A stretch of 62,213 nt of DNA, counting the filler, from Stramenopiles sp. TOSAG23-6 (Eukaryota): the NCBI GenBank assembly GCA_900128565.1. It is 28 parts of 28 records of this genome, joined end to end, with 100 filler letters (N's around TTAATTAATTAA, not from the genome) between each part and the next. Parts side by side here need not be neighbours in the genome. Positions count along the whole stretch, not along the records: positions 55,682 to 57,793 come from LT638294.1; 27 more parts are not named here. One strand, given 5' to 3'. This document shows, in pieces, positions 12,824 to 57,087 of this stretch (position 1 is its first letter; every line of letters begins with the position of its first letter). The notes beneath the pieces were generated by a model, which saw only the letters and a program-made list of their open reading frames with translations, was not told where the DNA came from and searched no databases. The position numbers were made by a program, and so were the translations under genes.

Positions 12824-14100
12824 ATATTGTTTATTCAATAAAAATGTAATTTTTAGTTTGTAAAATTCAAGGTGAAGATGTGATGGTAATATTAAACAAT
12901 TGGTGAAGATGGAAAGAAAAAATTAGGAATACATAAGATGGAAATAGATAAATTTATTTTTAAAAGTGCACTTAAACTCAATTTGCATGATATAAATAAA
13001 TTAAAATGATTCCATTACCCCAAACCTAACCTACAATTCCCCCCTTAACTGTTTAATTGTTTGTGATGTTTGATCTTTCTTTGGTATATATATATGAAAA
13101 CATTGTTCCATTTTTCTCATGGTATTAAGATAATTCATTGTAATATTCTTTGTTAACCCTTTTCCTAAAAGATCAGCCCAAACAATATGTGTTTGTTCTT
13201 GTAATTTTTCAAACAGTGAGTTTTTGGTCAATGGATTATAAAGTAGTTGTTTTTGGATTTCTTCTGTTACTTTGAGATTGATCTTGTTGTAAAGTTGGTT
13301 CGCTCTCAATTGACGAGTGTCAGGACCAGCCAATAAGGCATGGTACCTTTTATTTGTTTCTTTATTCATCTTTTTNNNNNNNNNNNNNNNNNNNNNNNNN
13401 NNNNNNNNNNNNNNNNNNNTTAATTAATTAANNNNNNNNNNNNNNNNNNNNNNNNNNNNNNNNNNNNNNNNNNNNTACGAAATTTTGTACCTAACGAAAA
13501 AACATTTGAAATATTTTTCCAAAATACATGGTCTATTCACTCAACCTCATCTCGTTCCATTCGCCACTCGAAAGAGGCTACAACTCATTACTCAAAAATA
13601 TTGGGATAAAAAGTATTTTTCTGGTGAAATTGTTTAGAACAATACACATGCTTTTAAAATTGTCTGTTTACTTGCTACAATATTTTATCCATATCTTGAT
13701 GAGATGACTTTAAAAGCGTGTAATACACGAAATACACTGAAATAAAATATATAAAAAAAAAGATTTTACAGTTAGAAAAATGTGAGAATACGGAAAAGGA
13801 ATCGAATAAAAATTAGATTAATACTTGAAAAATTGAATGCTTTGTTTGTTAGGTACAAATTTTCCTATGAAAACAAAATCGAATAAAAATAAGAATAATA
13901 CACCCAAATAGTTGATAGATTTTTTTTAGTGAAATATTATTTTTATTAACACTACATTTTTCACTTGTTGGTTTTCTACTTTTTGGAAATAATTGGTCTT
14001 TTCAGAATATCAATTTGACACTAATTAAGAAATTTACTTAGTTTTCCATGATTGAAGAATAAGAAGTTTAATTAGTTTTCCATGATTGAAGAAAATTTAA

Positions 14101-14817
14101 TTAGTTTTCCATAATCACAATAGGTCTGTTACAACTGAGTAACTTAATATCTTTTTCCAACTGATCCAATAAGTTCTCAAAGTTTTCTTTCTTCCGAATT
14201 TTGCTGATGGTATCCAGTTTAGTGTTGTGAGTAATTCGTTGATATTTCTGATTCGTGTCATCCCATTTAACTTTCAACTGAGCACACAAGTTAGCTCGTT
14301 CAGTAGGATCCAGTAGAGTACCTCCTTGGTTATTCTGCTGCTCTTCTTGTTTTGAAAAATATTGCTCAATCACTTTCTTTTCGTCAGCAATGTCTGCTTT
14401 AACATGTTGTAAATATTCTGGTGTTTTACCGTAATCTTTCTTCTTCAAAAAGTTGGGTTTTGTTTCTCTAGCTTTTGGAACAGCTAGAATGTTTTCAACT
14501 GCATTAGATACTACAAAATCTTTAGTGGTTTGAAGGCCCATGACAGGTCTGTCTTTTCTCCCAGGTAATTTTTGTTTTGCTGTAACTACACGCTTTCGTG
14601 TCCATGGTTTTGCTTTTGACGGCTTTGATTGTCGGGTGCCTCTCAAATATTGTTTAGGATTTGGTTTGTTGTTTGGTTTACCAAATGTTCCGTGATTTCC
14701 ACTTTGTTTCCCGAATGAACTTGCAACCTTTCTGCTTCTGTCGTGTGTTGACCGATACATAGGTGGTTTAACCTCTTGAACTTCATCTTCCTGAATCCAG
14801 TTATAAATGCTTTCCAT
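14101..14817 (-). CDS. ENKUR: Enkurin (axonemal protein)
   Basis: MESIYNWI, KPPMYRS, KDFVVSNAVENIL, FLKKKDYGKTPEYL, LKVKWD...RKKENFENLLDQLEKDI. Confidence 0.9.
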   Translation of the reverse strand: MESIYNWIQEDEVQEVKPPMYRSTHDRSRKVASSFGKQSGNHGTFGKPNNKPNPKQYLRGTRQSKPSKAKPWTRKRVVTAKQKLPGRKDRPVMGLQTTKDFVVSNAVENILAVPKARETKPNFLKKKDYGKTPEYLQHVKADIADEKKVIEQYFSKQEEQQNNQGGTLLDPTERANLCAQLKVKWDDTNQKYQRITHNTKLDTISKIRKKENFENLLDQLEKDIKLLSCNRPIVIMEN

Positions 14818-15024
14818 TCTTTCAATTTGGTTTGTGTCTGTTGCACCTACCTGATCTAATTAGTTTGGAATAGACTACCGGGAAGATTTTCTTGCGATTG
14901 ATTGTGTAACGTCTTTTAGCAAACGACACGAAATCTCGAAAAATCTGAAAAATATTTGAAATTCAATTCGAACCACTTGTTGTTCAACACTTCGTAGACT
15001 TGTAAGTAACGGGAAGTATTGAAA

Positions 15025-15555
15025 ATGTTGTCGGATTCGCCAAAAAATGGGGGTGATTCTGAAGTGCATGCTGGGCGAGCTAAATGGAATAAATTGATGG
15101 ACCCAACGAGTAAGAGGCATTACTATGTGAATGAACTAACAAAATGCACTACTTGGACAGCACCAGATGCACGACAGACAGAAAAATATGCTGAATACTT
15201 TGACCAGAAAGGTCGAGCGTTTTACTTGAATAAGATAACACGGGCTGCAACTTGGCATAAACCACCAATGTTTGATACAGAGGCTTCAACTCGAGGTGAA
15301 AAAGCTGTGACTTTGTTAAATTTACAACAAGATGCTCAACTTGCTTCAACTAAGTCTAGTAATACTACTGAAACTTTGAATGAGTTGAGTGAAAATGATT
15401 TATGGCAAGCTTACACTGACGAGCATACAAAAAGAATATATTACATCAATAAGTTAACAGGTTGCTCAACATTTACTAAACCCGTAGTTGAAGATGAAGA
15501 AGAAATATGGGAAGTGGACGTCGAGGATCTTGACACACTTGTTCAGAGTGACAAT
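15025..15555 (+). CDS. Multi-WW-domain protein, first exon
   Basis: Three WW repeats (W..D..SKRHYYVN..T..TTW..P); ends at AT|GTATGT. Confidence 0.88.
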
Positions 15556-15714
15556 GTATGTTTTATTTTTTTTCAAATTCGAATTTTTTTTTCGTACGAA
15601 ATTTTGTACCTAACNNNNNNNNNNNNNNNNNNNNNNNNNNNNNNNNNNNNNNNNNNNNTTAATTAATTAANNNNNNNNNNNNNNNNNNNNNNNNNNNNNN
15701 NNNNNNNNNNNNNN

Positions 15715-17853
15715 TACGAAATTTTGTACCTAACGAAAAAACATTTGAAATATTTTTCCAAAATACATGGTCTATTCACTCAACCTCATCTCGTTCCATT
15801 CGCCACTCGAAAGAGGCTACAACTCATTACTCAAAAATATTGGGATAAAAAGTATTTTTCTGGTGAAATTGTTTAGAACAATACACATGCTTTTAAAATT
15901 GTCTGTTTACTTGCTACAATATTTTATCCATATCTTGATGAGATGACTTTAAAAGCGTGTAATACACGAAATACACTGAAATAAAATATATAAAAAAAAA
16001 GATTTTACAGTTAGAAAAATGTGAGAATACGGAAAAGGAATCGAATAAAAATTAGATTAATACTTGAAAAATTGAATGCTTTGTTTGTTAGGTACAAATT
16101 TTCCTATGAAAACAAAATCGAATAAAAATAAGAATAATACACCCAAATAGTTGATAGATTTTTTTTAGTGAAATATTATTTTTATTAACACTACATTTTT
16201 CACTTGTTGGTTTTCTACTTTTTGGAAATAATTGGTCTTTTCAGAATATCAATTTGACACTAATTAAGAAATTTACTTAGTTTTCCATGATTGAAGAATA
16301 AGAAGTTTAATTAGTTTTCCATGATTGAAGAAAATTTAATTAGTTTTCCATAATCACAATAGGTCTGTTACAACTGAGTAACTTAATATCTTTTTCCAAC
16401 TGATCCAATAAGTTCTCAAAGTTTTCTTTCTTCCGAATTTTGCTGATGGTATCCAGTTTAGTGTTGTGAGTAATTCGTTGATATTTCTGATTCGTGTCAT
16501 CCCATTTAACTTTCAACTGAGCACACAAGTTAGCTCGTTCAGTAGGATCCAGTAGAGTACCTCCTTGGTTATTCTGCTGCTCTTCTTGTTTTGAAAAATA
16601 TTGCTCAATCACTTTCTTTTCGTCAGCAATGTCTGCTTTAACATGTTGTAAATATTCTGGTGTTTTACCGTAATCTTTCTTCTTCAAAAAGTTGGGTTTT
16701 GTTTCTCTAGCTTTTGGAACAGCTAGAATGTTTTCAACTGCATTAGATACTACAAAATCTTTAGTGGTTTGAAGGCCCATGACAGGTCTGTCTTTTCTCC
16801 CAGGTAATTTTTGTTTTGCTGTAACTACACGCTTTCGTGTCCATGGTTTTGCTTTTGACGGCTTTGATTGTCGGGTGCCTCTCAAATATTGTTTAGGATT
16901 TGGTTTGTTGTTTGGTTTACCAAATGTTCCGTGATTTCCACTTTGTTTCCCGAATGAACTTGCAACCTTTCTGCTTCTGTCGTGTGTTGACCGATACATA
17001 GGTGGTTTAACCTCTTGAACTTCATCTTCCTGAATCCAGTTATAAATGCTTTCCATTCTTTCAATTTGGTTTGTGTCTGTTGCACCTACCTGATCTAATT
17101 AGTTTGGAATAGACTACCGGGAAGATTTTCTTGCGATTGATTGTGTAACGTCTTTTAGCAAACGACACGAAATCTCGAAAAATCTGAAAAATATTTGAAA
17201 TTCAATTCGAACCACTTGTTGTTCAACACTTCGTAGACTTGTAAGTAACGGGAAGTATTGAAAATGTTGTCGGATTCGCCAAAAAATGGGGGTGATTCTG
17301 AAGTGCATGCTGGGCGAGCTAAATGGAATAAATTGATGGACCCAACGAGTAAGAGGCATTACTATGTGAATGAACTAACAAAATGCACTACTTGGACAGC
17401 ACCAGATGCACGACAGACAGAAAAATATGCTGAATACTTTGACCAGAAAGGTCGAGCGTTTTACTTGAATAAGATAACACGGGCTGCAACTTGGCATAAA
17501 CCACCAATGTTTGATACAGAGGCTTCAACTCGAGGTGAAAAAGCTGTGACTTTGTTAAATTTACAACAAGATGCTCAACTTGCTTCAACTAAGTCTAGTA
17601 ATACTACTGAAACTTTGAATGAGTTGAGTGAAAATGATTTATGGCAAGCTTACACTGACGAGCATACAAAAAGAATATATTACATCAATAAGTTAACAGG
17701 TTGCTCAACATTTACTAAACCCGTAGTTGAAGATGAAGAAGAAATATGGGAAGTGGACGTCGAGGATCTTGACACACTTGTTCAGAGTGACAATGTATGT
17801 TTTATTTTTTTTCAAATTCGAATTTTTTTTTCGTACGAAATTTTGTACCTAAC
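15715..17853 (+). repeat. Redundant copy of scaffold 13476-15614 (enkurin 16340-17056 minus; WW protein 17264-17794 plus)
   Basis: Identical ORF translations at offset 2239. Confidence 0.95.
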
Positions 17854-22526: not shown

Positions 22527-23370
22527 GCAAGTTCTAGAAAATATGCCGTCAGATGTGACACGTGTCTTTATTTTCCCGCAAATGTTTGCTTTGCATTCTC
22601 TGCCAGTAGACTCTGGTTTACCCTCTCAAGATGATTCAGGAAAAGGCCCAGAAAAAATAAAAATGCCACCCATCATGAATTTATCAATTTCAAAGATGTC
22701 GTCTGATGTGCGTTTATTTGTAACAAATTCTTTTTATTTTTTTTTTTTTTTTTTTTTTTAAAAAATTTCATACCTAACAAAAAAAAACATTTCAATTTTT
22801 TTTTGTATTTTTTTACAATTCATGGATGTTATCTTGTAGAAGATGGTGTAACGATGTTTATATGGATTGGTCGTGCTTCACCACCTAAATTGGCACATGA
22901 TTTGTTTGGTGTTGAAACGTTGGAGGGCATTGATTGTTCGATGTTACAACTACAAAAAAGAGAAAATGAATTCTCACAAAAAGTATCAAATATCATATCC
23001 GCTCTTCGATCAAATCGTAGCATTCACCAGAGAGTCCAAGTAGTAAGACAAGGCGAACCTAACGAACAAATGTTTGCATGTACGTTTCTGTTATGAAATA
23101 TATAGATTTTTTTTTTTTTTTTTTTTCTAGTACATATAATTTTTTTTTTTTTTTTTTGAATTCAATTTTTTATAAAAAATTCTAAATTATTTAAAAAAAA
23201 AAAAAAAAAAACTAAAAAACTAAAAAACTAAAAAATGTTTCAAAATAATATTTTCAAAACGTACATGGCGTTTGGTAGAAGACCGTGCGGATTATCCTGG
23301 AGGTGGTCGATCGTATCAGGAATATGCAGCCTATGTGCAACGCACTACACAGTTACAAATACCTCATTAG
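22527..23370 (+). CDS. SEC24: COPII Sec24, C-terminal exons 22527-22707, 22824-23079, 23267-23370
   Basis: FPQMFALH...MSSD|GCYLVEDG..MFIWIG...LFGV...FA|WRLVEDR...SYQEY. Confidence 0.9.
22708..22823 (+). mobile_element. Non-canonical intron (GT...AT)
   Basis: TCT GAT|GTGCGT...TACCTAAC...ACAATTCAT|GGA TGT TAT. Confidence 0.88.
23080..23266 (+). mobile_element. Non-canonical intron (GT...AT)
   Basis: GCA T|GTACGT...AAAACGTACAT|GG CGT TTG GTA GAA GAC; restores the frame into LVEDR. Confidence 0.88.
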
Positions 23371-23726
23371 TGTGTTAGGGTTAGGGTTAAGTATAGTTAT
23401 TATGTACGAATTCACTCAAGGACGTATAACAAACACACAAAATCGCAAAATCGAATATACTATACATTGGCTCTATGATACCGATTTGATAGAACTGTCA
23501 ATACTATGTTTAAGGCGTTGTTGACCAACACTAAAAAACCTAAAAATCATTTTTTTTCAAATTTTCCGGTTGATTTCAGTAAAAGTAAAAAAAAGGGAAG
23601 AAAAATTAAAAAAAACGTTTAATTTTGAATTTAATGTTGCAATAAACAAAATTGTTACCTGTATTTTTCTAAATAGAATCTTTTATATCATTTACAATAA
23701 ATAAAAGATTATGAAAGCTTTGTCCT

Positions 23727-24200
23727 TCATTTCTCAAAAGAATTTGAGTTAGGGTTACTACTAGAGGATGAAATTGTGGACANTCGTTCCATCATTTCAA
23801 CACTTTCNTCATAGGAGTTACCCGGTACACCAAAGTCAGCTTTGACATCATACATGGTTAAACGTCCAATAGAGTCACCTACAGCAATTTTCCGTCCTGT
23901 GCTGTCCCATATACTATAAAAAATATCAAAAAAAAAAAAATTTCNTTAGNTTGAAAAAAAATTGACGATTTTTTTAAAAATATTTGTTAGGTACAAAATT
24001 ATCTACGAAAAAAAAACTTCACAAATAATAAAAACATACAACACAAACGATTTACNGCATGTTTTGACGAATCATTTGTTGAATATTTTTTATTTGGACT
24101 TTTTTGTTTTTCAGTTACATTTTTTACGTTTCTTGTTTTTGTACCTAACGATTGTGTAGATGTTTGTGTTGAATGATTGATTGTATACACAGGACAACTC
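23727..24200 (-). CDS. Cytoplasmic dynein intermediate chain (WD40), last exons
   Basis: Spliced AVNRLC|WDSTGRKIAVGDSIGRLTMYDV matches the dynein IC C-terminus ALNRVRWxxSGREIAVGDSEG. Confidence 0.85.
23909..24039 (-). mobile_element. Non-canonical intron (GT...AT)
   Basis: TGT T|GTATGT...TACCTAAC...ATAGTATAT|GG GAC; restores the conserved Trp; a 2-nt-shifted junction gives TGA. Confidence 0.9.
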
Positions 24201-24344
24201 ATATATTTTGTGGAACAATATTTCAAAAAAATTTTAAAATTAAAATTAATTTTTTTTTTCTTAGGTATAAAATTAACTACAAAATTAAAAAAAAAAAAAA
24301 AAAAAAAAAAATGAAACATCGAATGCAAAAAAAAAAAAACGTAC

Positions 24345-37293: not shown

Positions 37294-38039
37294 NNNNNNN
37301 NNNNNNNNNNNNNNNNNNNNNNNNNNNNNNNNNNNNNNNNNNNNNNNNNNNNNNNNNNNNNNNNNNNNNNNNNNNNNNNNNNNNNNNNNNNNNNNNNNNN
37401 NNNNNNNNNNNNNNNNNNNNNNNNNNNNNNNNNNNNNNNNNNNNNNNNNNNNNNNNNNNNNNNNNNNNNNNNNNNNNNNNNNNNTAAAAAAGAAAAAAAA
37501 ATTATTTTCTTAAATTTTAGGGATGTTTGAAAATTTTTTTCTGGTAGATTTTGAAATTTTTTTTTTTTTTTTTACAATGAAAAAAAAATTTTTTTTTTCA
37601 TGGAAATATATTGCTTATGTGTGTAGAAACAATCTGGCATTGAAAAAAAAAAAAATTATTTAGTCATTTCTAATATATTTTGACTTTAATAGTCAGGTCG
37701 GCCTAACTAACCCTAATCCGAAATTCTTTGTTTTTCTTTTTCTCTTCCCGCCTTTCCTTTCCATCTTCCATCATTCAATCTGCCATCAATCATCCATCAA
37801 TCAGCCATCAATCAATCTCCCATCAGTCATCCATCATTCTCTCCCTTCAATATCTCCAATATCTCCACCANNNNNNNNNNNNNNNNNNNNNNNNNNNNNN
37901 NNNNNNNNNNNNNNTTAATTAATTAANNNNNNNNNNNNNNNNNNNNNNNNNNNNNNNNNNNNNNNNNNNNAAAAAAAAAAAAAAAAAAAAAAGTGAAATT
38001 TTTTTTTTAAAATTAAAACAAAATTAAATCAAAAAAACC

Positions 38040-38983
38040 TACATATGACAAGTAAATGCAATGCTTTCTGTCGAATATAATGAGGACGGTATTGTAGCAT
38101 ACATGTATTGTACAAAAAATAGTCATTGTACAAAAAAAATAAAGTTAGGTACAATTTTTTAAAAAATTAAAAAAAAAAAAAAATTTAAATTTTTTTTTTT
38201 TTTGAAAAAAGTTAAATTTTTTTTTAAGTTAAATATGTACAATAACACCATACAAATACATAAGTGTAAAATTCCAATCAATGATGGTAATTTTGGTAAG
38301 ACTGGACATATTTCAGACAAAGCACCAAAATAGTGTTCGTACCAAATATTCTTACCTGACGCAAAATAACAACGATGTAAACAAAAATCTCTTGAAACTT
38401 CCGATCTTGATAAAATATGCGTTAATGCAATTTTAGCCATATTTCGTGTAAATGAAGTATTACACCAAAATAATTCATCAATCCAGTCAAAAATAATTTC
38501 ATTTGATTTATCAATTTGACACTTTAACAGTGATGTCATTGCTAGTAAAAACGATTTTTGAAATGTATTTAGGTACAAATTTTGTACCATTTTCGTTTTT
38601 TTTGTTTTTTTTGTGATTTCGTGTAAATAATTGGACCATCTTTGGTGTAAAATGGACCATAATTTAGCCGCAACTTCAGATGTAAAGGGAGCGTCCCAAG
38701 TATCACAGACATTTTGTATGTATTTTGGAAAAATATTTTTTTTTTTTTATAATTTTTTTGTTAGGTACAAAATTTACTACAAAAAAAAAATCGAATTTGA
38801 AAAAAAAAAACATACATACATCGACACAATTCGCATTGTAAGATTTGTAATGATTTCGTGTCATACGGTTCTAGACAATTTGGTGAAAAATATGTGAATG
38901 ATTTAAAAAATCTTTTTTTGTATGTTAGATAATTTTTTTTTTTTTTTTTTTTTTNTGAAAATTTTTTTTTTTTTTGGGAAAAA

Positions 38984-39015
<32 letters not shown>

Positions 39016-39400
39016 TGAAATTCATAATGAAAACACACATTGTGCTACATTGATCAATATAAAACACTGGCAAATGTAGTATCAGCTCTTCATCAACAGC
39101 AATGATGAATGCAACAAATCGATTTCGTATCGTTTGGTCATGACTGATAGGAATATTTTTCATTTCTGTGTTTTTCGTGTGATTAGGGTTAGGGTTAGGG
39201 TTAGGGTTATTCTGTACTTTTTTGTTGAATGTTCGAATTTGACCAATGAGGCTCAGCAGCTAATTTTGCAATATTTGAAAAAATTCGTGTCAATGCCGTT
39301 AGTAGTGCTCTTTGCCGACGTCGCTCTTTAACAATTTTACGGTTTTGTTTTTTATTTTTATTATTTGCATACCAAGCGGAAGCAACATATAAGATGAACA
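38040..39400 (-). CDS. Multi-exon gene fragment (possibly Furry/TAO3-like HEAT protein)
   Basis: IIFDWID...ALTHIL...LHRCY...YFGALSE; several minus-strand family introns; frames not fully resolved. Confidence 0.4.
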
Positions 39401-40279
39401 ATATTTTGAAGAAAAAATTAAAATATATTGTTAGGTACGAAATTTCCTACGAAACCAAAAAAAAAAAAAAAATTTTGAATTTGAAAAAAAAAAAAAAATA
39501 CATATATATAGTGAAAAAATATGCTTCAAGAATTTGATTTTTTTAGTTAGAAATACAAAAATTCATAATAAGGGTTAGGGTTATAATAAAAAATATACTT
39601 ATATGTAATTATAATATAACTATGAATGAGTTAGGGTTATAATGAAACACATATCATTATAAAACTCCATGCATTAAAAAAAAAAAAAATTAGAAATTNN
39701 NNNNNNNNNNNNNNNNNNNNNNNNNAAAAAAAAAAAAAAAAATGGGTAGGTACAAAAATTCGTACCAAAAAAAAAAAAAAATTGAAAAACATACATTTCA
39801 GAAACTCCCTTGGATTTCTACAATTTTCTTTATCATAGTTTTCTTCACCTTCTTCTAACCCTAACCCTAACTTTTTTTTGGTTTTTTTACTCTTTTTGTT
39901 TGTTTTTTTTGTCATCGACGAAGATGGAAATCCAAATTGTTTTTTTAAAAAAACTTTATTTGTGTTATCTAGATAAAGTGTGCTAGGTAATTGAATGTTT
40001 TGAAGCTCAGCATGTAAAGTTTCAGTGAAAAAATGGAAAAATTCTTGTGCATCTTGTTGATTATAACTACGAAATCTAGGAATAAATNNNNNNNNNNNNN
40101 NNNNNNNNNNNNNNNNNNNNNNNNNNNNNNNTTAATTAATTAANNNNNNNNNNNNNNNNNNNNNNNNNNNNNNNNNNNNNNNNNNNNTGAAAAATATGAT
40201 TTGATATTTGTTAGGTACAGAATTTCGTACCAAAAAAAAAAAATTGAAATTCATAATTAGGGTTAGGGTTTCAACAAAC

Positions 40280-41068
40280 ATGGCACGGTCTCTAGCTCCT
40301 TTCCATAATATTTGTAGAACTTCTTCTTCGTTATCGACTTGAACATTTGTTGCCTGAGGTACGAAAACACCACCTCCTTTTATTTCTTCTCTGATATCGA
40401 GACCTCCTCGGAGTTTCTTGGATTCTTCGTAACGCAAATATTGTGAAAAAATATTTCAAAAATTTGATTTTGTTTTCGTTAGGTACGGAATTTCCTATGA
40501 AAAAAAAAATACATTTGAAAGTGGAGAATACGTACAACAGATCGTAAATTCTCTCGTTATAAATCTCAAGATACGTACATTTGACTGTATAGGAAATGTC
40601 TCGTCGTTTTGAATTTAAAACTCGAAAAACTTCTTTCATAGCACGTGGAATAAGCCCCCACATATTCTTATTAGCAGCAAATTTATCAATGGAACTATCT
40701 TTCGTACTAGTATCCTCCCCCCATGAGTTCACACCAAGAATAGTATGTGTTTTACCAGTACCAGTTTGACCATATGCGAATATAGTACTATTATACCCTT
40801 CAAGAGCCGCTTTGATAAAAGGTCGTGTCGACGCGTACACTTCAGCCTGACTGGACGTATCACTAAAGACGCGATCAAATTGGTGGCACCGAATCTGTTT
40901 TGGGTTTGAGTTGAACTTTCCACGCTGAGCTACTCGAACAAACTGTGAGCCTGATACTGTGATTGCCTTTGTAACACCTGCATTAACTTCACGCTCTATC
41001 AATGGACGTACCCGGGCAACCACTTTAATGGTCTCTGCAACATTTCCACTTTCACATCGCTGCTTCAT
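40280..41068 (-). CDS. Kinesin motor, N-terminal exons (intron 40436-40535, GT...TT)
   Basis: IKVVARVRPL, FDRVF, GYNSTIFAYGQTGTGKTHT, YLEIYNERIYDLL|RYEE...LDIREE; CTG TT|GTACGT...CACAATATTT|G CGT. Confidence 0.95.
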
Positions 41069-42455: not shown

Positions 42456-43069
42456 ACTGAAGACCGAGATGTAACGTTTGAGAGAGGTATTGTTCATAGT
42501 GACGAGGCAGCTGTTCTACCAAAACAATTTAAAGATGTAGGCTTAAGTTTTTTGAAAATTGAATTTCGCATTTGTTTTTTTAAAGAAAATTTTGTACCTA
42601 ACAAATTTTTTGACTAGAAAAAAACATTTTTTTACAATATATGACCTTTGTGAGTGTAGAGTTAGATAAAGAGGATGGTAATAATTTAGAAAACACCTTT
42701 ATAATATCTAGTTGGTGCCCATCGGCACAAAATGTAAAACAAAAACCAAGTATGCTCGTCACGTACAACGCCAAGGAAAAGACTGAAAATATTGATTCTG
42801 ATTGGACAGTTACTTCCCGTGAAGGTCATCCTTGTCTAACTTCACGACAAATGATGAGTACATCTCTCCTTTGGCCTTGGATGCAAGGGAATCGTAATGG
42901 TCGTGTATATTTTTGTGGATCAGCTATTACACCAGGAAATGGGCATGATTTATCATTGCTTTCAGGTATGGTCATTGCATGTGAGTTGGGTGTACCGTTT
43001 CCATTTGATGAAAATAGTGAAGCGAAGAGTGACTTTGAAAAATTAAGGTATTTAATGTTGAGCAAATAA
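42456..43069 (+). CDS. FAD/NAD-dependent oxidoreductase-like C-terminus
   Basis: MQGNRNGRVYFCGSAITPGNGHDLSLLSGMVIACELGVPFPF. Confidence 0.6.
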
Positions 43070-44319: not shown

Positions 44320-45149
44320 TTCTACACAATTTTTACAACTAGAAATGTGCTTTATTCAGTTGAGCTACAGTAGTGTACTTGTCTAAAAAAAGGTTACGTT
44401 GACAATCCCAGACCTGTGTCAAAAAAAGAAAGATTTCAAAAGAATGTTACCCGGTACACCAAAGAATTCTAATTTTGCATAAAAATTTAATATTGCATAA
44501 ATGTTGTTTTTCAATGTNNNNNNNNNNNNNNNNNNNNNNNNNNNNNNNNNNNNNNNNNNNNTTAATTAATTAANNNNNNNNNNNNNNNNNNNNNNNNNNN
44601 NNNNNNNNNNNNNNNNNATCAGCAAAAGACTATGAGCAACTTAGAAAGAGAGATGAAATCAAACCAAAAACCTCAGATGGTACGCAGTACATCAGGAGCG
44701 CAACTTCCAAACACCTCAGGAGAATATGAAAATGAAACAAATACAACCAAATTAGTTATACGTAGAGCCAGAAATCGTGCGAAAGTCGCAAATGCGAGAG
44801 CAAAGCTTTTGGAAGAAGAGGCTGAAAAGGAATGGCAAACAAAGAAAATAATGAAAATAATGAAAATGAATCTGAAAACCAATGCACTGAAGATATTCAT
44901 TCCACAAAAACAAATAGCAGGTCAAAGCAAAAACGTTGGATGAAGCGAATACAAGATCAACACACTGCACTTATATGATTGACTTGGCTAAACTTGTAGG
45001 AAATTGAAATTTTTTGTATTATCCATTATTAGCATTCGGACCTATATGTATATGACTAATAAACATCAAACTATTTTTTCTTTATTTTGAATTCTTCTTA
45101 TGAATTAAAAAAATCTTTTTTGTACGAAACTTTGTACCTAACAATTGTT

Positions 45150-46731
45150 TTAAAATCGTTTTGTTGTGTCACCTTCTTCACGCAATGCAGTTTCTAAACG
45201 CTTAAAATAATCTTTTTGTGCAGGACTACTAAAAGCTGATTTCATCTGTTTACTACTCGTTGCATTTAATAAAGCAGCTTTATGTGTTCCATCGAATTGC
45301 TTCATCCAACGATTGCATTTATTGTGAAAAATATTTTTAGAAAAAAAAACTTCGTTAGATACGAAATTTTCAATGAAACAAAAATCAAGTAAAAATTCAT
45401 AATGAAAACATACTATAGCTTAAACTTAATCTTGCTAATCTACGACCATTTTGTGAACTTACACAGGCTTGTTGAAAATTTTCTAGGGCAAGCTGTCCAA
45501 CTGCAAGATTATGATAGGCTACAGCAACCATGCATATCTTTTCACTTTTACTCCCACCCAAACCTTCCAATTTTCCTGATTCTACTAAAGCAATGACTGA
45601 ACCAGCAACTTTAACGCTCTCATGCTGTTTGTTCTCAGCAGATAATAATGCTGCCATATGTAATTTACACTTTGCAACGTGGTGCCATTGACCTTGTTGA
45701 GCGTGTGTTTTAATAGCTTTTTGTAAATACTGAATACCTGCAGTTGGTTTATGCCTTTTATAATAGTAATGTGCATAACAATCTTGTATGAAGGCGCGAA
45801 GTTCTTTGCGCTCTGCTGAAAACAGAATATCCTGTTTGCTTATCAAAGAATTTGCTTTCTGTAACATTTTCAGTGCCTTCCCAAACAAACTTGCGTCTGT
45901 ATATTTTTTGGAAAATATTGTAGCTGCAACGATTAATTGTCTATATTGTCGTCGCATCAATGGCATCGTATCACCAGTGATATTAAATAAATAAGCAAGT
46001 AATAAAGCCTCAACAATTCCAATATATTTACCATATTGACCTGCTGACTCCAAAGCCCTCAATTCAGTACATAATTTATGAGAACAACTTACATCTGTCA
46101 TGTCGATAGGCTGCCCTGTTCCATCTGCTGCCAAAGCACACCAAACTGCTTTTGTTTGTCCTGCGCCAGAAAACCATATATGTTTGCGGCGAATTTTCAC
46201 CTCCATATCAGCAAAACCTTTCCAAATGACACCAGGCTTTTCCTTATCCAATTTTGCAAATTTCATGGACTTTTTAGCTACATTCCTGGAATTCTTATTT
46301 TTGTTCTGCTTTTGCCGTGCCATCGTCTTTCTAGATCCACTTTGTTTTATATTCATTGTTTTCTTAATATTCGCGCGATAAATAGTCATTATATTTCGAG
46401 CCATTTCATTCTCCCACTCGTCTACTTGTAAAGCTTTAGCAGTCGACGTTCCTACCGTTTTTGAACCACGTCTACTTGCAACCTTTCTTTTGATACCATG
46501 TTCTTTATTATTATATGTCCTTTCATGTTTTACAACATTTGGATTATTATTACTTTTACTTACTATTTTTTTCACACTTATATCTTGCTGTTTTTTATTA
46601 TTTGGAATTCTTTTAGTATTTTGTTCAATTGTTTTGGAGTCATCTTCTTGTAAAGATGATAATGTCAAAGGTATATCAGTGGAATATCCACTTCTTTTTC
46701 TTGTATTATGCAAGCCTGGGACTTGACCTCT
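45150..46731 (-). CDS. TPR-like hypothetical protein (intron 45317-45413, GT...AT)
   Basis: TPR-like helices (AVAYHNLAVGQL); TAT A|GTATGT...CAATAAAT|GC AAT CGT TGG gives SYSNRW, while the shifted junction gives TAA. Confidence 0.75.
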
Positions 46732-48945: not shown

Positions 48946-49102
48946 NNNNNNNNNNNNNNNNNNNNNNNNNNNNNNNNNNNNNNNNNNNNTTAATTAATTA
49001 ANNNNNNNNNNNNNNNNNNNNNNNNNNNNNNNNNNNNNNNNNNNNATTTTGTACCTAACAAATTTAAGTTTTTTTTTTTTGAAATATTTTTCCAAAACAC
49101 TT

Positions 49103-50827
49103 GATGTTCGTAATGATCCAACAAAAAGTGTTATTTTTGGTGATGATAGTGNCGTAAATGGTCAAGCANTACTCGATATTGCTGAATTTCAACGTGACCG
49201 TCGAATTTGTTTTGAATGGAACAAAGGAGATATCTTAATTATTGATAATTTTAAGGTCATGCATTCTAGAAATCCATTCACTAGACCAAGGCGTATCTTA
49301 GCAGCTATTGGTGGTCCATCAAAGGACGGTTATGCAATTGGTTCAGGTATTCGACAAGCAGAAAGTCCTACTGAAGATATACCAATGCCAGACAAACATT
49401 CAAATAATTTTAAAAATTCAAAATATCATGGAAATAGCAAAGGTGTATTTCGTGCATCAAAAGGAAAGGATTCTCAAGGTCTCAAACGTGCACGTAATGT
49501 TCCCGTTAAGATATTATCTCGCACAGGAGATACAATGCCAATGCTTCAATTAGGAGTTTGGAAAATATCTAAAGAATGCACCGCTCAAATTATTTTCGAT
49601 GCAATTGTTATGTACGTTTTCATTTCAAATTCGATTTTGTTCTTTTATTTTATACCAAATTGTATACCTAACATTTTTTTATTTTGAAATATTTTTTCAC
49701 AATACATAGGCTATCGTGCATTTGATTGTGCATGTGATTATGGAAATGAATCCGAAGTTGGTGAAGGTATCAAGCGTGCACTTGATGCTGGGCTTGTTTG
49801 TCGCGAAGAGCTATGGATTACATCAAAATTATGGAATACATATCATAACCCTAGACATGTAAATTTTCAATCTCAATTTTGTATCTAAGATTTTTTTTAA
49901 AGTATATATATTTTTACTATGAAATTCCAATTTTGATTTTTTTTGTATCTTACTCTACTTTTAAATACTATTGTTTACTTTTGTATTTTGCCATTTCATC
50001 TAAGAAAACAATAAAAACTTTACTACATATTTTTTTCAATTTAATTTTTTTTGGTTTGAAATTTTGTACCTAAACAACAACAACAAAACAAACATATTTT
50101 TTTCACAATACATGTCAAACTTGCATGTCAAAAAAGTTTAAAAGATCTTCAATTAGATTATTTAGATTTATATCTGATTCATTTTCCAATATCGCTTAAA
50201 TTTGTACCATTTAACAAGAGGTATCCTCCTGAGTGGATTTATGATCCAAATTCTCCAAATCCTCGAATGGAATTTGCAAATGAACCGATGTATAAAACAT
50301 GGGCGGCTATGGAAACTTTAGTTGACTGCAATATGGTAAGAAATATCGGTATTTGCAATGTAGGTCAAGCATTACTCAGTGATATTTTATCATACTCGCG
50401 ATATAGCCCACAGGTGCTTCAAATTGAAGTTCATCCGTATAATACACAAGAAATGTTGTGTAGATATGCAACAGAAAATAATATTGCTGTTACTGGGTTC
50501 AGTCCACTAGGTGCNTCATCCTATGTAGAACTTAATATGGCAACTTCTTCACAATCTACACTATTAGAAGATGTTATTACGAATTTAGCAAGTAAATACA
50601 ATAAGACATGTGCTCAAATCATTTTGAGATGGGGAATTGAAATGGGACGTATAATTATTCCTAAAACATCAAAAAAGCATCGACTTGTCGAAAATATCGA
50701 ACTGTTCACCTTTAAACTTGAAAATAATGAATGTTCAGCAATATCAGGATTGAATAAGAATATGCGGTTTAATGATCCAGGAGTCTTTTGTCAATCTATG
50801 AAAGGTTTTTGTCCAATATATAACTAA
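49103..50827 (+). CDS. TauD/clavaminate-synthase-like dioxygenase fused to a xylose-reductase-type AKR; introns 49612-49707 and 49859-50113 (both GT...AT)
   Basis: DVRNDP...[26 protein letters not shown] (TauD C-terminus), in frame with [13 protein letters not shown]...[19 protein letters not shown]...[16 protein letters not shown]...RFNDP. Confidence 0.9.
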
Positions 50828-51040
50828 ACCACAAAAGCAACCACAAAAGCAACTACAAAAGCAAACATTTTTATAAAGGGGTAAAATAATCAATCTTGTC
50901 CCATTTATAATTGAAATAAATTTGTTTTATTTGATACTCAATTTCAAAACTAAGAAGAATTTTCCAAGATCTTTTTTTTGCCATTTAGGTAACTACTCTA
51001 TCGCCGGGTTATTTAACAAAACAACATTGTAAAATATGGT

Positions 51041-51156
51041 AGCTCAGCAAGCAGGCTTCCAAACGGGTCCCCCACGATCGTACTAGCTGCTCTCAACCGG
51101 GCTTAACTTCTCAGTTCGGATGGGATGAGGTGCTGGTCCGGTGATATGGCCGAGCT
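51041..51156 (-). rRNA. 5S rRNA
   Basis: Reverse complement AGCTCGGCCATATC...GCACCTCATCCCATCCGAACTGAGAAGTTAAGC...GCTAGTAC...GTGGGGGACC...GGAAG...GCTGAGCT; complementary ends, downstream T-run. Confidence 0.88.
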
Positions 51157-51257
51157 GNNNNNNNNNNNNNNNNNNNNNNNNNNNNNNNNNNNNNNNNNNN
51201 NTTAATTAATTAANNNNNNNNNNNNNNNNNNNNNNNNNNNNNNNNNNNNNNNNNNNN

Positions 51258-53369
51258 ATTTTGTACCTAACAAATTTAAGTTTTTTTTTTTTGAAATATT
51301 TTTCCAAAACACTTGATGTTCGTAATGATCCAACAAAAAGTGTTATTTTTGGTGATGATAGTGGCGTAAATGGTCAAGCAATACTCGATATTGCTGAATT
51401 TCAACGTGACCGTCGAATTTGTTTTGAATGGAACAAAGGAGATATCTTAATTATTGATAATTTTAAGGTCATGCATTCTAGAAATCCATTCACTAGACCA
51501 AGGCGTATCTTAGCAGCTATTGGTGGTCCATCAAAGGACGGTTATGCAATTGGTTCAGGTATTCGACAAGCAGAAAGTCCTACTGAAGATATACCAATGC
51601 CAGACAAACATTCAAATAATTTTAAAAATTCAAAATATCATGGAAATAGCAAAGGTGTATTTCGTGCATCAAAAGGAAAGGATTCTCAAGGTCTCAAACG
51701 TGCACGTAATGTTCCCGTTAAGATATTATCTCGCACAGGAGATACAATGCCAATGCTTCAATTAGGAGTTTGGAAAATATCTAAAGAATGCACCGCTCAA
51801 ATTATTTTCGATGCAATTGTTATGTACGTTTTCATTTCAAATTCGATTTTGTTCTTTTATTTTATACCAAATTGTATACCTAACATTTTTTTATTTTGAA
51901 ATATTTTTTCACAATACATAGGCTATCGTGCATTTGATTGTGCATGTGATTATGGAAATGAATCCGAAGTTGGTGAAGGTATCAAGCGTGCACTTGATGC
52001 TGGGCTTGTTTGTCGCGAAGAGCTATGGATTACATCAAAATTATGGAATACATATCATAACCCTAGACATGTAAATTTTCAATCTCAATTTTGTATCTAA
52101 GATTTTTTTTAAAGTATATATATTTTTACTATGAAATTCCAATTTTGATTTTTTTTGTATCTTACTCTACTTTTAAATACTATTGTTTACTTTTGTATTT
52201 TGCCATTTCATCTAAGAAAACAATAAAAACTTTACTACATATTTTTTTCAATTTAATTTTTTTTGGTTTGAAATTTTGTACCTAAACAACAACAACAAAA
52301 CAAACATATTTTTTTCACAATACATGTCAAACTTGCATGTCAAAAAAGTTTAAAAGATCTTCAATTAGATTATTTAGATTTATATCTGATTCATTTTCCA
52401 ATATCGCTTAAATTTGTACCATTTAACAAGAGGTATCCTCCTGAGTGGATTTATGATCCAAATTCTCCAAATCCTCGAATGGAATTTGCAAATGAACCGA
52501 TGTATAAAACATGGGCGGCTATGGAAACTTTAGTTGACTGCAATATGGTAAGAAATATCGGTATTTGCAATGTAGGTCAAGCATTACTCAGTGATATTTT
52601 ATCATACTCGCGATATAGCCCACAGGTGCTTCAAATTGAAGTTCATCCGTATAATACACAAGAAATGTTGTGTAGATATGCAACAGAAAATAATATTGCT
52701 GTTACTGGGTTCAGTCCACTAGGTGCATCATCCTATGTAGAACTTAATATGGCAACTTCTTCACAATCTACACTATTAGAAGATGTTATTACGAATTTAG
52801 CAAGTAAATACAATAAGACATGTGCTCAAATCATTTTGAGATGGGGAATTGAAATGGGACGTATAATTATTCCTAAAACATCAAAAAAGCATCGACTTGT
52901 CGAAAATATCGAACTGTTCACCTTTAAACTTGAAAATAATGAATGTTCAGCAATATCAGGATTGAATAAGAATATGCGGTTTAATGATCCAGGAGTCTTT
53001 TGTCAATCTATGAAAGGTTTTTGTCCAATATATAACTAAACCACAAAAGCAACCACAAAAGCAACTACAAAAGCAAACATTTTTATAAAGGGGTAAAATA
53101 ATCAATCTTGTCCCATTTATAATTGAAATAAATTTGTTTTATTTGATACTCAATTTCAAAACTAAGAAGAATTTTCCAAGATCTTTTTTTTGCCATTTAG
53201 GTAACTACTCTATCGCCGGGTTATTTAACAAAACAACATTGTAAAATATGGTAGCTCAGCAAGCAGGCTTCCAAACGGGTCCCCCACGATCGTACTAGCT
53301 GCTCTCAACCGGGCTTAACTTCTCAGTTCGGATGGGATGAGGTGCTGGTCCGGTGATATGGCCGAGCTG
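51258..53369 (+). repeat. Redundant copy of scaffold 49046-51157 (TauD-AKR at 51315-53039)
   Basis: Same sequence at offset 2212, with Ns resolved. Confidence 0.95.
53253..53368 (-). rRNA. 5S rRNA (duplicate scaffold)
   Basis: Identical to 51041-51156. Confidence 0.88.
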
Positions 53370-53473: not shown

Positions 53474-54349
53474 TTATTTTTTAGTAGCAATAATGAAAAT
53501 GAGATCATCTTCAAAACTAATCATCTTACTTTTATCATCTGAAATGTTATATTGCTGATGTATTTCTTCTATACCTCTATCCAATTCTTCCGTTTTAAAA
53601 GAACTAAATATTGAAAACACTCTATTTTTAATCATATTAGTCCAATCGGTTAAATGTATTCTGAAACAATATGTCAAAATTCAAAATTTGTTAGGTACGG
53701 AATTTCCTATGAAAACAAAAATAAATTTGAAATAATGATGAAAACGTACAAGTACTTGAAAGTGGAAAACTTCGTGTACAACTTCAATAGTAAACCCAGG
53801 AGCTGCTCTTGTTATTATTTCCACCAACGATTCCACAGATGGTTGTTCATCAGCCCATTTTTTCTTTGCAAGTTCAAAAAGAGGAAATTTAGGAAATTTT
53901 GGTCGAGTCACTGCGAGACAAATTCCATTTGAGTTCAAATGATGAAATATTTCGCAGTACATCTTTTCCAGAGTTTCTTTGCTGATATGGTGTACTACTT
54001 CTTGAAGCAAGAAACGATCATACATAGTTTTGTTTTCAGATAGAAACTGAAGTGCAGTTTTGTTAACTTTCACAACGTCATCAGCCTTTGCTTTTTCAAG
54101 CATTTTTGTACACGGCTCTACGCATACTACTTTACTCTTTAATTGTGCTTCTGCCTTTAATATGGAAGCCATCTGACAGATTCCACTTCCAATATCTACA
54201 AATTTACTCGTCGAAATTAATTTGATATGCTTCATGACCTTGCCACTCTTCCAATTTGTAAATTTACTACCCTCACGGTAAAACATTGATGCATCGTACA
54301 CTTTCGAGACTAAGCTGTAATGCTCCGAGTATTCCGTTGATGGCAGCAT
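53474..54349 (-). CDS. Class I SAM-dependent methyltransferase (intron 53654-53749, GT...AT)
   Basis: FVDIGSG, VCVEP, YDRFLLQEVVHH; CTT|GTACGT...AGAATACAT|TTA ACC GAT TGG. Confidence 0.85.
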
Positions 54350-55540: not shown

Positions 55541-55715
55541 ATGTATGTTTTATTTTTTTTTTTTCCGGTAAAAAAAAAATCNNNNNNNNNNNNNNNNNNN
55601 NNNNNNNNNNNNNNNNNNNNNNNNNTTAATTAATTAANNNNNNNNNNNNNNNNNNNNNNNNNNNNNNNNNNNNNNNNNNNNTTTTTTTTTTTTCAAATAT
55701 TTCTTCACAATACTT

Positions 55716-57087
55716 GTTGCATATGAAATGGAACCAATATCATATTCCACACAACATGTAATTGTACGTCATTCCAAATTAGACGAAAGTAAAAATAAGA
55801 TTAAATATTTTGGTCGTCCTATGTATGTTTTATTTTTTTTCAAATTCGAATTTGTTTTTTTTCGTACGAAATTTTGTACCTAACAGATTTTAGTTTTTTT
55901 TTTTGAAATATTTTTCCGAAATACATGATGCTAAAGANNNNNNNNNNNNNTCTTTATTTTTTGATGAAGTTTGGAATTGTATATCTAAATTAATGAAACC
56001 TGGCTCATATGCTAAAGAAAATAAAAATGATTCTGATTCGAGTTCAAATACTGATTATAATGATGATGATGAATATTGGTCATCACAATTATTGCTTTAT
56101 ATTGACAAAGACTCGGAATCAATTATAAATCCAAAAGTATCAAAAAATTCCGAAATTTCAAAATTTGGGAAACAATTAGTAAAGAAAAATGATATTTTAT
56201 TTTTGATTCCAGAACAAAAGAGAGAAAAAATGCCAATCATAAATCTTCGATGGACAAAAGAATGGATTTCAAGACGTGACATGACCAAAGTGAAAGCTAT
56301 GTACGTTTTCATTATGAATTTCATTTTTTTTTTTCGTACGAAATTTTGNNNNNNNNNNNNNNNNNNNNNNNNNNNNNNNNNNNNNNNNNNNNNNNNNNNN
56401 NNNNNNNNNNNNNNNNNNNNNNNNNNNNNNNNNNNNNNNNNNNNNNNNNNNNNNNNNNNNNNNNNNNNNNNNNNNNNNNNNNNNNNNNNNNNNNNNNNNN
56501 NNNNNNNNNNNNNNNNNNNNNNNNNNNNNNNNNNNNNNNNNNNNNNNNNNNNNNNNNNNNNNNNNNNNNNNNNNNNNNNNNNNNNNNNNNNNNNNNNNNN
56601 NNNNNNNNNNNNNNNNNNNNNNTCGTACGAAATTTCGTACCTAACAAATTTTTTAGAATTTTTTTGAAATATTTTTCAAAAATACATGTTAGGTAGAGGT
56701 ACAAAAATTAATGCAACAGTAAATTTTCCATTAGAAGATCTCGATATGAAACCTTTTATTATCAATGATAGTGTTGCAAATAATGAATGTATTTATGATC
56801 TGTTTGCAGTCTCAAATCATTTTGGTCGTTTAGGTTCAGGTCATTACACTGCATATGCTAGAAGAGTTGAAGATAGACCGACAATAAATAATGTAGATGA
56901 CACGAAATACGGGAAATCTGGAAATATAAAGGAATATACTACGAGATATTGTTTTCCATGGGTTAACTTTGATGATAGTTCAACTGAAGTAATTGATGAA
57001 AACGATGTTGTTACTGAAGCTGCTTATATTTTATTTTATGTAAAGAGAAAAATAACTCATAAAAATATTGTATTTGTGGATGAATAA
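55716..57087 (+). CDS. Ubiquitin-specific protease (C19), 3' exons (intron 55823-55926, GT...AT)
   Basis: KINATVNFPLEDLDM, YDLFAVSNHFGRLGSGHYTAY, WVNFDDS, AAYILFY; FGRP-M junction. Confidence 0.92.

Follow-up and report, generated by a model that had tools for sequence, protein, structure and literature searches.

Introner-like elements with probable non-AG, mostly AT, 3' borders in Stramenopiles sp. TOSAG23-6

Introduction

Can an introner family dispense with a terminal AG, and if so, what marks its 3' splice site? The question is raised by a 104-base intron at positions 55823-55926 of a 62213-base stretch of DNA from Stramenopiles sp. TOSAG23-6 (assembly GCA_900128565.1), inside a gene for a USP/UCH deubiquitinase. 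To our knowledge, introners are the sole route to intron gain in bursts, and almost all the families described have GT-AG or GC-AG borders. An earlier note on this DNA took the intron for a member of a recently amplified introner family with inverted GTAT...ATAC termini, in which a 2-base target-site duplication (TSD), mostly AT, supplies the acceptor. The answer bears on research into intron gain and 3' splice-site choice, and on the limits within which splicing rules can bend.

The window is the whole stretch of 62213 bases. It is composed of 28 scaffolds of 2110-2151 bases placed in order of decreasing size and joined by linkers of the form N44+TTAATTAATTAA+N44, and it covers more than one locus; copies said below to lie in unrelated genes are copies on unrelated scaffolds. 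Scaffold 15715-17853 is an identical duplicate of 13476-15614, scaffold 51258-53369 duplicates 49046-51157 with 99.9% identity, and scaffold 60104-62213 is an allele-like version of 26872-28993 (95% identity). Copy counts must therefore be de-duplicated, which leaves 25 short scaffolds as the unique sample.

Introns of One Repeat Family

The focal copy lies on the plus strand and has exactly the layout that the earlier note had described. A 5' splice-site block, GTATGTTTT (55823-55831, read from the sequence), is followed by a T-run. A 22-base block, CGTACGAAATTTTGTACCTAAC (55863-55884), fuses a palindrome remnant, CGTACGAAATTTTGTAC, to a branch-like motif, TACCTAAC, and is followed by a 3' module, TTTGAAATATTTTTCCGAAATAC (55902-55924), and by a terminal AT (55925-55926) that frame and homology suggest to be the last two bases of the intron (GT...ATAC-AT). 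The upstream exon also ends in AT. Exon 55716-55822 aligns with residues 712-743 of a relative, P0125, and the last exon of the gene corresponds to Pfam UCH 166-254/254. The P0125 alignment extends when AT is removed with the intron (PMML vs PLLL), and in-frame stops appear when AT is kept; the 3' border of this particular copy is weakly fixed because just 11 exon bases precede an N gap. Two AGs are found between its branch motif and the inferred end. The TTTTAG that follows the branch motif was rejected as acceptor, a reading by eye of this option running into a stop.

The 22-base block recurs across the window. Searched for as CGTACGAAATTTYGTACCTAAC with at most 3 mismatches, it gives 34 matches against 0 in 100 dinucleotide-preserving shuffles, and 28 unique ones once the six in duplicate scaffolds are dropped. 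Positions T15, A16, C17, C18, T19 and A20 of the block are invariant in 25 copies. A search of public collections with the branch block identified one metagenome contig, L001, that carries an extra copy, with 0 matches in the genome-contig collection and 0 in the viral-contig collection; the 3' module had 0 matches in each of two sequence collections. We curated a set of 22 complete introns, 21 from the stretch and one from L001, to which the counts below refer unless another denominator is given.

These introns have 94-255 bases (median ~112) and start with GT in 21/22 cases, the 5' hexamer being GTATGT in nine, GTACGT in six and another sequence in seven, never ATATCC. The last base is T in 20/22; the last two are AT in 17, TT in two, GT in one, TG in one and a doubtful CC in one. 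The closing triplet of the intron is YAY in 15/22, and YAY precedes the 5' site in 7/22. The distance from branch motif TACCTAAC to the intron end is 33-77 bases. The 3' modules, with consensus TTTGAAATATTTTT-CAMAATAC, show a median nearest-neighbour identity of 0.91, and overall conservation is highest in the presumed functional blocks, with variable spacers between them. The consensus does show the inverted GTAT...ATAC terminus, but as a weak one, since it is four bases long and ATAC is exact in just 9/22 copies. In blastn against the 22-sequence database every intron (22/22) has a partner at E<=1e-5, with 127/231 pairs recovered, and 74/231 with dust on.

The carriers are two aldo-keto reductase (AKR) genes, a UPF0029 gene, a kinesin, an Arp, two USP genes, a methyltransferase and others, which bears out the view of dozens of copies of a single repeat family with a shared layout in unrelated genes. 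Every recognisable intron in the sample is a member of the family, and no intron of another kind turned up in the 7 genes for which homologues or profiles were available. Intron phases are approximately even (6/7/8, two of them read by hand).

Probable 3' Borders Without AG

Intron borders were deduced from reading frame and homology. By this reasoning, the 3' border appears, with good support, to lie two bases past the conserved ATAC and to be non-AG and mostly AT, in agreement with the acceptor that the earlier note had proposed. Removal of the terminal two bases together with the element yields the longest in-frame open reading frame (ORF) in 16 of the 20 stretch introns examined. Among the other four, 42537-42640 (plus strand; GTAGGC...CAAT-AT, upstream AT) is brought into frame by a 2-base realignment that keeps its AT end; the frame gives no decision for the focal copy, with its N gap, and for 39669-39794 in the second USP gene (minus strand; upstream AT, end AT, 27 N inside); and 4665-4765 in the Arp4-like gene (minus strand) is an exception whose frame requires a border directly after ATAC.

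Profile continuity (346-498) and homologue alignment (1296-1403, 1559-1738, 49612-49707 and 49859-50113) place five junctions exactly. In the UPF0029/IMPACT-like gene (plus strand), intron 138-257 (upstream AT, end AT) is followed by 113 open codons solely with AT removed, and intron 346-498 (GTATAG...CTC-AT, upstream AT), whose sole AG is inside the 5' hexamer, separates exons corresponding to Pfam UPF0029 53-83 and 85-106, the junction codon filling position 84. In the first AKR gene (plus strand), homologues P0002, P0003 and P0006 align across intron 1296-1403 (GT...CTAC-TT, upstream TT), the gap at KNV/GVSNFG amounting to exactly 36 codons. Intron 1559-1738 of the same gene (GT...ATAC-AT) has no border repeat, the upstream exon ending in GG at a conserved Gly/Ala position, and its junction ITG/YCPLAR agrees with the homologous MGYCPLAR and AGHCPLAR; within it lie a pair of branch modules and a TTTTTTAG microsatellite. 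Intron 1777-1896, also in this gene, ends in AT and has an ambiguous 5' border, the element starting with ATAAGT and an in-frame GTAAAT lying 6 bases upstream at 1771. In the second AKR gene (plus strand), removal of 49612-49707 (upstream AT, end AT; duplicate copy 51824-51919) gives the junction AIVI/GYRAFDCA and restores the GYRHID motif (GYRxxD), and the longer composite intron 49859-50113 (GTAAAT...ATAC-AT, upstream AT; duplicate copy 52071-52325) gives YHNPRH/VKLACQ. The kinesin motor gene is interrupted at 40436-40535 (minus strand; GT...ATAT-TT, upstream TT), where exon 1 corresponds to Pfam Kinesin 1-141 and the next exon, in the frame with TT removed, to 150-190.

The remaining copies of the stretch follow the same scheme with some variation. 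Upstream AT and terminal AT are found together in 24201-24344, 27676-27791 and 38718-38815 on the minus strand, the last with 185 open codons downstream when AT is removed, and in 30947-31040 on the plus strand. The allele of intron 27676-27791, on scaffold 60104-62213, has a T-run 16 bases shorter and a synonymous G for A at exon position -2. Three minus-strand copies end in AT after a different exon pair: 23909-24039 (upstream TT, N bases blurring the upstream frame), 45317-45413 (upstream TA) and 53654-53749 in the methyltransferase gene (upstream TT, with an unused CAG 7 bases before the end). Intron 28518-28644 (plus strand; GTACAT...ATAC-GT, upstream TT) has a frame that fits, by eye, the removal of GT, and 38876-39038 (minus strand) is a degenerate copy starting with GTGTGT whose frame-fitting end is TG.

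AG was rejected as the true acceptor. Intron 1296-1403 has no AG at all, and 6 of the 21 introns whose branch motif can be recognised have AGs between the motif and the inferred end, where their use would break the frame. Some subfamily members carry a single TTTTAG 10-18 bases past the branch motif, which resembles a canonical acceptor and is incompatible with the frame. A TTTTTT(T)AG microsatellite is found within two intron copies, at 1635-1690 and 23200-23250 (minus strand).

Terminal AT and the Upstream Exon

The terminal pair is identical to the last two bases of the upstream exon in 15/22 introns (AT/AT in 13, TT/TT in two), a count that the earlier note had put at 11/17 (nine and two). 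Permutation gives a mean of 11.27 matches (p 0.0097), so that identity of the pairs is above the shuffled null, but most of the matches are expected anyway. With four uncertain introns dropped from an earlier set of 21, the match is 13/17 against 10.2 expected (p 0.045); where T is the last base of both pairs, as in 18 introns, the bases at position -2 are associated (13/0 vs 2/3, Fisher p 0.012). The excess is real, small and carried by the two TT/TT introns. Most matches result from two separate preferences for AT, one at the exon end (14/22) and one at the intron end (17/22). AT at the exon end is to be compared with 9.0% of exon dinucleotides (p 3.6e-10), a strong preference. The upstream exon ends in T in 19/22 introns (14/17 in the first count), and the first downstream exon base is G in 13/22.

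Seven of the 22 introns lack the match. AT closes the intron even where the exon ends in GG (1559-1738), TA (45317-45413) or TT (53654-53749 and 23909-24039), which argues for a terminal pair that is the element's own 3' signal and not an acceptor created by duplication. The proposal that a TSD supplies the acceptor does not hold up here as a rule for the family; a 2-base duplication at insertion could still have occurred in part of the copies. A 3-base ATG repeat, also considered, fits fewer copies than the 2-base repeat in a hand count.

Copies Outside Introns and Signs of Mobility

Family sequences are found outside introns too, in both orientations and always as partial copies. A 5'-truncated copy (31553-31598, plus strand) is antisense to a minus-strand gene (31597-32796), to which its end apparently supplies the last codons and the stop (by eye). 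A partial copy at 45100-45150 (plus strand) is antisense as well, directly after the stop codon of a minus-strand gene. Tandem branch-module fragments occupy 27368-27480 (plus strand) in intergenic DNA, and three degenerate ones are scattered over 35981-37065 (minus strand) in AT-rich non-coding DNA. Two further 5'-truncated copies stand head to head at 28177-28394, between divergent ORFs, around an A/T-rich palindrome that holds TCGA; as the reversed 3' end resembles a 5' site, this arrangement might serve as an intron in either direction.

Near-identical halves are present in different genes, for example the 5' halves at 55823 and 15556 and those at 55543 and 28883, and subfamilies can be recognised by linked variants that include non-signal positions (GTACGTTTTCATCAT...CATAGGAAATTCCGTACCTAAC; GTATGTTTTATTTTTTTTCAAATTCGAATTT...CGTACGAAATTTTGTACCTAAC; CCGGTAAAAAAAAAATCG). 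Of the 50 unique scaffold ends, 18 fall in a family module, compared with 11.8% for internal windows (p 8e-6), which implies that many copies elsewhere in the genome share long identical words. The two AKR paralogues have 0/6 intron positions in common, and the two alleles (26872-28993 and 60104-62213) carry the same copies. With similar partners for 22/22 introns, scaffold breaks within copies and fragments outside introns in both orientations, the notion of an introner-like family is well borne out.

Some copies have a perfect central palindrome and others have lost its 5' arm, the TACCTAAC half being invariant. A putative hairpin upstream of the branch site shows no pair of compensatory changes, with 76.7% of cells paired against 77.8% in shuffles. 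The sequences suggest that the palindrome is an inherited DNA feature, decaying where splicing has no need of it. No stable RNA fold was detected in six copies (z -0.3 to -2.0 relative to shuffles), and self-complementarity of the whole element exceeds that of shuffles in just 4/21 copies, the focal one having a z of 0.03.

Proposed Mechanism and Alternatives

We consider it probable that the copy at 55823-55926 is a member of a dispersed, introner-like family of self-contained splice elements, and that the terminal AT is borne by the element. The core of this reading, a repeat family that forms introns and has a non-AG acceptor, is supported; the splicing chemistry, the mobility and the mechanism of insertion are what we infer from it. 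Each copy would bring a yeast-like 5' site GTAYGT, a T-run, the branch motif TACCTAAC, the 3' module and a final xT, mostly AT. A U2-type spliceosome would cut immediately before GTAYGT and use the adenosine of CTAAC. Ligation would take place 33-77 bases downstream of the branch motif and two past ATAC, intervening AGs being ignored, and the acceptor would be set by the element's own 3' module instead of AG. Elements would reside at exon sites with AT on the left and G on the right of the intron, exon AT reflecting a site preference either of insertion or of the splicing context that is tolerated. A farther-reaching version, which we advance tentatively as a possibility, is that in this organism the AG rule has for the most part been abandoned by the major spliceosome, that nearly the whole intron complement comes from one mobile cassette of ~100 bases with a canonical 5' site and branch site, and that its ~25-base 3' module fixes GU...AU ligation two bases past ATAC, true AGs in the vicinity being passed over.

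Several points weigh against these proposals. Every junction was deduced from frame or homology. Two introns break the xT rule, 38876-39038 (TG) and 4665-4765 (GT...AC); the latter has 53 open codons solely in the GT...AC frame, its spacing relative to P0121 (64% identity) fits, and a CCCC run follows, where a base-count error may have occurred. Three copies at scaffold starts have AG or AA as their end; of these, at least two lie in 5' untranslated regions, and the third (26872) precedes a C-terminal coding exon. The excess of pair matches is what a 2-base duplication would give. The statement that all introns belong to the family is partly circular because introns were recognised by family features, and 25 short scaffolds of a fragmented assembly may be a sample biased to repeat-rich places. 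Neither clear inverted termini nor a full-length non-genic copy was seen in the stretch, and a Pfam scan of the 27 larger ORFs gave no transposase-like domain. Finally, identity between whole copies is 56-84% (mean 69%, from an alignment of 17/21 copies, the four long or composite copies being omitted). The set is a biased one, since the assembly breaks at those copies that are most alike. Modest whole-copy identity, some near-identical halves and breaks at scaffold ends together point to a range of family ages, and the recent amplification claimed at the outset would apply at best to a subset of copies.

The strict form of the earlier model makes each copy a non-autonomous DNA transposon with GTAT...ATAC ends and a 2-base duplication, whose downstream duplicate, mostly AT, is the acceptor. 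We regard it as unlikely, even though it would account for the 15/22 matches against 11.27, for the association at position -2, for the upstream TT of both TT-ending introns and for copies outside introns in both orientations, and has precedents in the duplication-supplied splice sites of Micromonas and Fritillaria (PMC11282704). Against it stand the 7/22 copies without a match. Among these, 1559-1738 ends in AT after the GG of a conserved residue, and 45317-45413 (TA/AT), 53654-53749 and 23909-24039 (TT/AT) and 28518-28644 (TT/GT) are xT-ended and unmatched. The matches themselves are for the most part those expected from two separate AT preferences, the inverted terminus is reduced to four bases with ATAC exact in 9/22, and no transposase was found in the 27 ORFs. 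An RNA route, reverse splicing followed by reverse transcription, has been proposed for fungal introner-like elements; it would need no duplication at all, AT and G then being the exon context preferred by the spliceosome. All intronic copies are sense-oriented, with a full signal set in ~100 bases, and the enrichment of AT (14/22 vs 9.0%) and of downstream G (13/22) and the near-even phases (6/7/8) would fit such a route. Insertion into mRNA does not predict partial antisense copies by stop codons and in non-coding DNA, and the predicted folds of six copies are no stabler than shuffles, so that we hold this route to be improbable.

The borders could also be drawn two bases upstream in most copies, to give AT...AC introns removed by the major or the minor spliceosome. 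A...C termini form a working compatible pair, and in the 13 AT/AT copies the two placements cannot be told apart by sequence. In copies without the repeat they can: the shift creates a TAA stop in 45317-45413, and in 1559-1738 it would put another residue in place of the conserved Gly/Ala. GTAYGT, not ATATCC, is the 5' site, ATAC is exact in 9/22, and the branch motif is 33-77 bases from the end, longer than the short distance typical of U12-type introns. Repeat-less copies, 5' site and branch distance lead us to read the class as GT...(A)T and to give AT...AC borders a low probability. U12-type introns have the 5' site [AG]TATCCTT and a branch site TCCTTAAC near the 3' end; minor AT-AC introns were rejected on account of GTATGT or GTACGT in 15/22, the absence of ATATCC among the 22 introns and the remote branch motif. 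Very improbable is an immobile family, in which all introns would have converged on, or been homogenised to, the same blocks of an extended splice code. Such a code would agree with conservation concentrated in the presumed functional blocks, with variable spacers and with the absence of any other intron type in the sample. It would leave unexplained the fragments outside introns and in antisense, the linked variants at non-signal positions, a palindrome arm that decays without compensation and the 0/6 positions shared by the AKR paralogues. Helitrons have TC...CTRR ends, and a Helitron-like insertion between A and T was rejected since the ends of the present family are unlike these.

Self-contained splice elements with an element-borne terminal AT thus remain our preferred reading. 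If the AG rule has indeed been largely abandoned, this organism would be a natural system for the study of AG-independent 3' splice-site choice and a case of an introner family replacing the intron complement. In practice, standard gene finders would fail on the genome, and assemblies break at the copies.

Gene Content and Other Features of the Stretch

GC content varies between 19 and 40% per 2 kb across the stretch, whose genes are unremarkable for a flagellated eukaryote. Among them are the two AKR genes and those coding for UPF0029/IMPACT-like, Arp4-like, kinesin, GET3/ArsA, enkurin, WW-domain, Reprolysin-like, Laminin_B, CAP-Gly and TauD-like proteins and two USP deubiquitinases. The nearest protein relatives are two EukProt proteins with 64% and 47% identity, and the named matches of the USP proteins, many of them from oomycetes, weakly hint at a stramenopile affinity. 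No transcript-assembly protein near-identical to AKR exon 1 was found, the best one having 52% identity apart from the stretch's own protein. The share of sampled words was 0.72 and 0.64 in two small DNA runs, 0.29-0.62 in seawater-metagenome DNA runs and 0.23 in one RNA run, with small shares in others, values that were used neither for expression nor for habitat.

The scaffold of the second AKR gene ends with a 5S rRNA gene on the minus strand (51039-51157, Rfam RF00001, 85.8 bits; duplicate 53251-53369), and ARAGORN found no tRNA genes in the stretch. On the same scaffold, the open frame 49103-49611 encodes a TauD-like C-terminal domain (Pfam TauD 207-263/267) and continues stop-free into the AKR N-terminus, which would correspond either to a fused gene or to two tightly packed genes. 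The C-terminal coding stretch of GET3 is present twice (26269-26492 and 26548-26771) on both sides of an N run, probably a scaffolding artefact.

Telomere-type repeats, (TTAGGG)2-5, are found at six unique interstitial places in ~53 kb (27911-27934, 39183-39206, 2503-2514, 23375-23386, 39859-39870 and 40257-40268), with 0 in shuffles; the matches are 13 when overlaps and the duplicate scaffold are counted, and L001 has such a site at ~2290-2330. One of the sites is translated in frame as NPNPNPN within an ORF, and one is located within the 5' part of the kinesin intron copy. One idea is that these repeats are healed breaks. An array of six GATTAG units (37270-37303, minus strand) adjoins an N gap on an AT-rich, gene-poor scaffold that also carries element fragments.

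Comparison with Known Systems

The curated surveys consulted here kept introner families with GT, GC, GA or AT 5' ends and AG or AC 3' ends (PMC12130899), a filter by which a GT...AT family would be lost or mis-annotated. Within the collection of papers searched, neither the motifs nor a query for introners with GT-AT or other non-AG borders led to a description of the present family, which the supplementary tables of introner surveys might list.

The closest known kind, the introners of Micromonas pusilla and Aureococcus anophagefferens (Huff, Zilberman and Roy 2016), have clear terminal inverted repeats, a constant TSD of at least 3 bases and GT/GC-AG borders with AG co-opted from the TSD (PMC11282704, PMC7789003), the duplication that gives AG in Micromonas being of 3 bases (PMC11282704). 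The present family resembles them as a repeat family of the hundreds-to-thousands type, made of short, apparently non-autonomous elements that act as introns in unrelated genes of marine plankton and, in part of the copies, have short direct repeats at the borders. It differs by its AT, TT or GT ends, by a repeat that is 2 bases long and inconsistent and by an inverted terminus of 4 bases. The fungal introner-like elements of van der Burgt et al. (2012) reportedly have ~100 bases and their own splice signals, and multiply before they decay into ordinary-looking introns; they are also said to be GT-AG introns with predicted stable folds, unlike the present family, which has a non-AG end and folds no better than those of shuffles.

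Euglenid intermediate and nonconventional introns rely on a stable helix that joins their ends and are described as lacking a pyrimidine tract (PMC11282704). A conventional-looking 5' part combined with a non-canonical 3' border and TSD-like junction repeats relates the intermediate type to our introns, which have a T-run and do not rely on a stable end-joining helix. Diplonemid non-canonical introns are described as C/G-rich and without preferred ends (PMC12621601); this type was rejected, its composition and ends being unlike those of the present family.

The introners of Amoebophrya have inverted repeats of 8-20 bases that pair the intron ends and direct repeats of 3-5 bases, and are described as having no preferred terminal dinucleotides (PMC7789003). 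They have in common with the present family that they are repeated non-GT-AG introns of a marine protist, with direct repeats overlapping the borders and no linked transposase. Here one border, GT...AT, dominates, 5' and branch signals are canonical and end-pairing is not strong: the terminal complement has 4 bases, the direct repeat 2, and fold z-scores are between -0.3 and -2.0.

Next in closeness is the tunicate Fritillaria borealis, with AG/AC and AG/AT introns in which YAY stands both upstream of the 5' site and at the 3' end; its U2AF paralogues are divergent (PMC13326754), and exonic TAC forms the 3' site (PMC11282704). The resemblance to our family consists of A-pyrimidine 3' ends, a last triplet YAY (15/22 here), YAY upstream of the intron (7/22 here), a proposed transposon origin and the share of the intron complement that is affected, which is the greater part of it (PMC13326754, PMC11282704). 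Fritillaria introns start with AG and are described as having no conserved 5' site or branch motif, unlike the present ones with their GT start (21/22), GTAYGT site and near-invariant CTAAC. If GT...AT borders are indeed used beside ordinary 5' and branch sites, the organism would separate two questions that Fritillaria and Amoebophrya leave intertwined, namely how a 3' site is chosen without AG and what share of that information is carried by the mobile element. The present family is Fritillaria-like at its 3' end and like yeast introns at its 5' end and branch site, and is a member of none of the families compared here.

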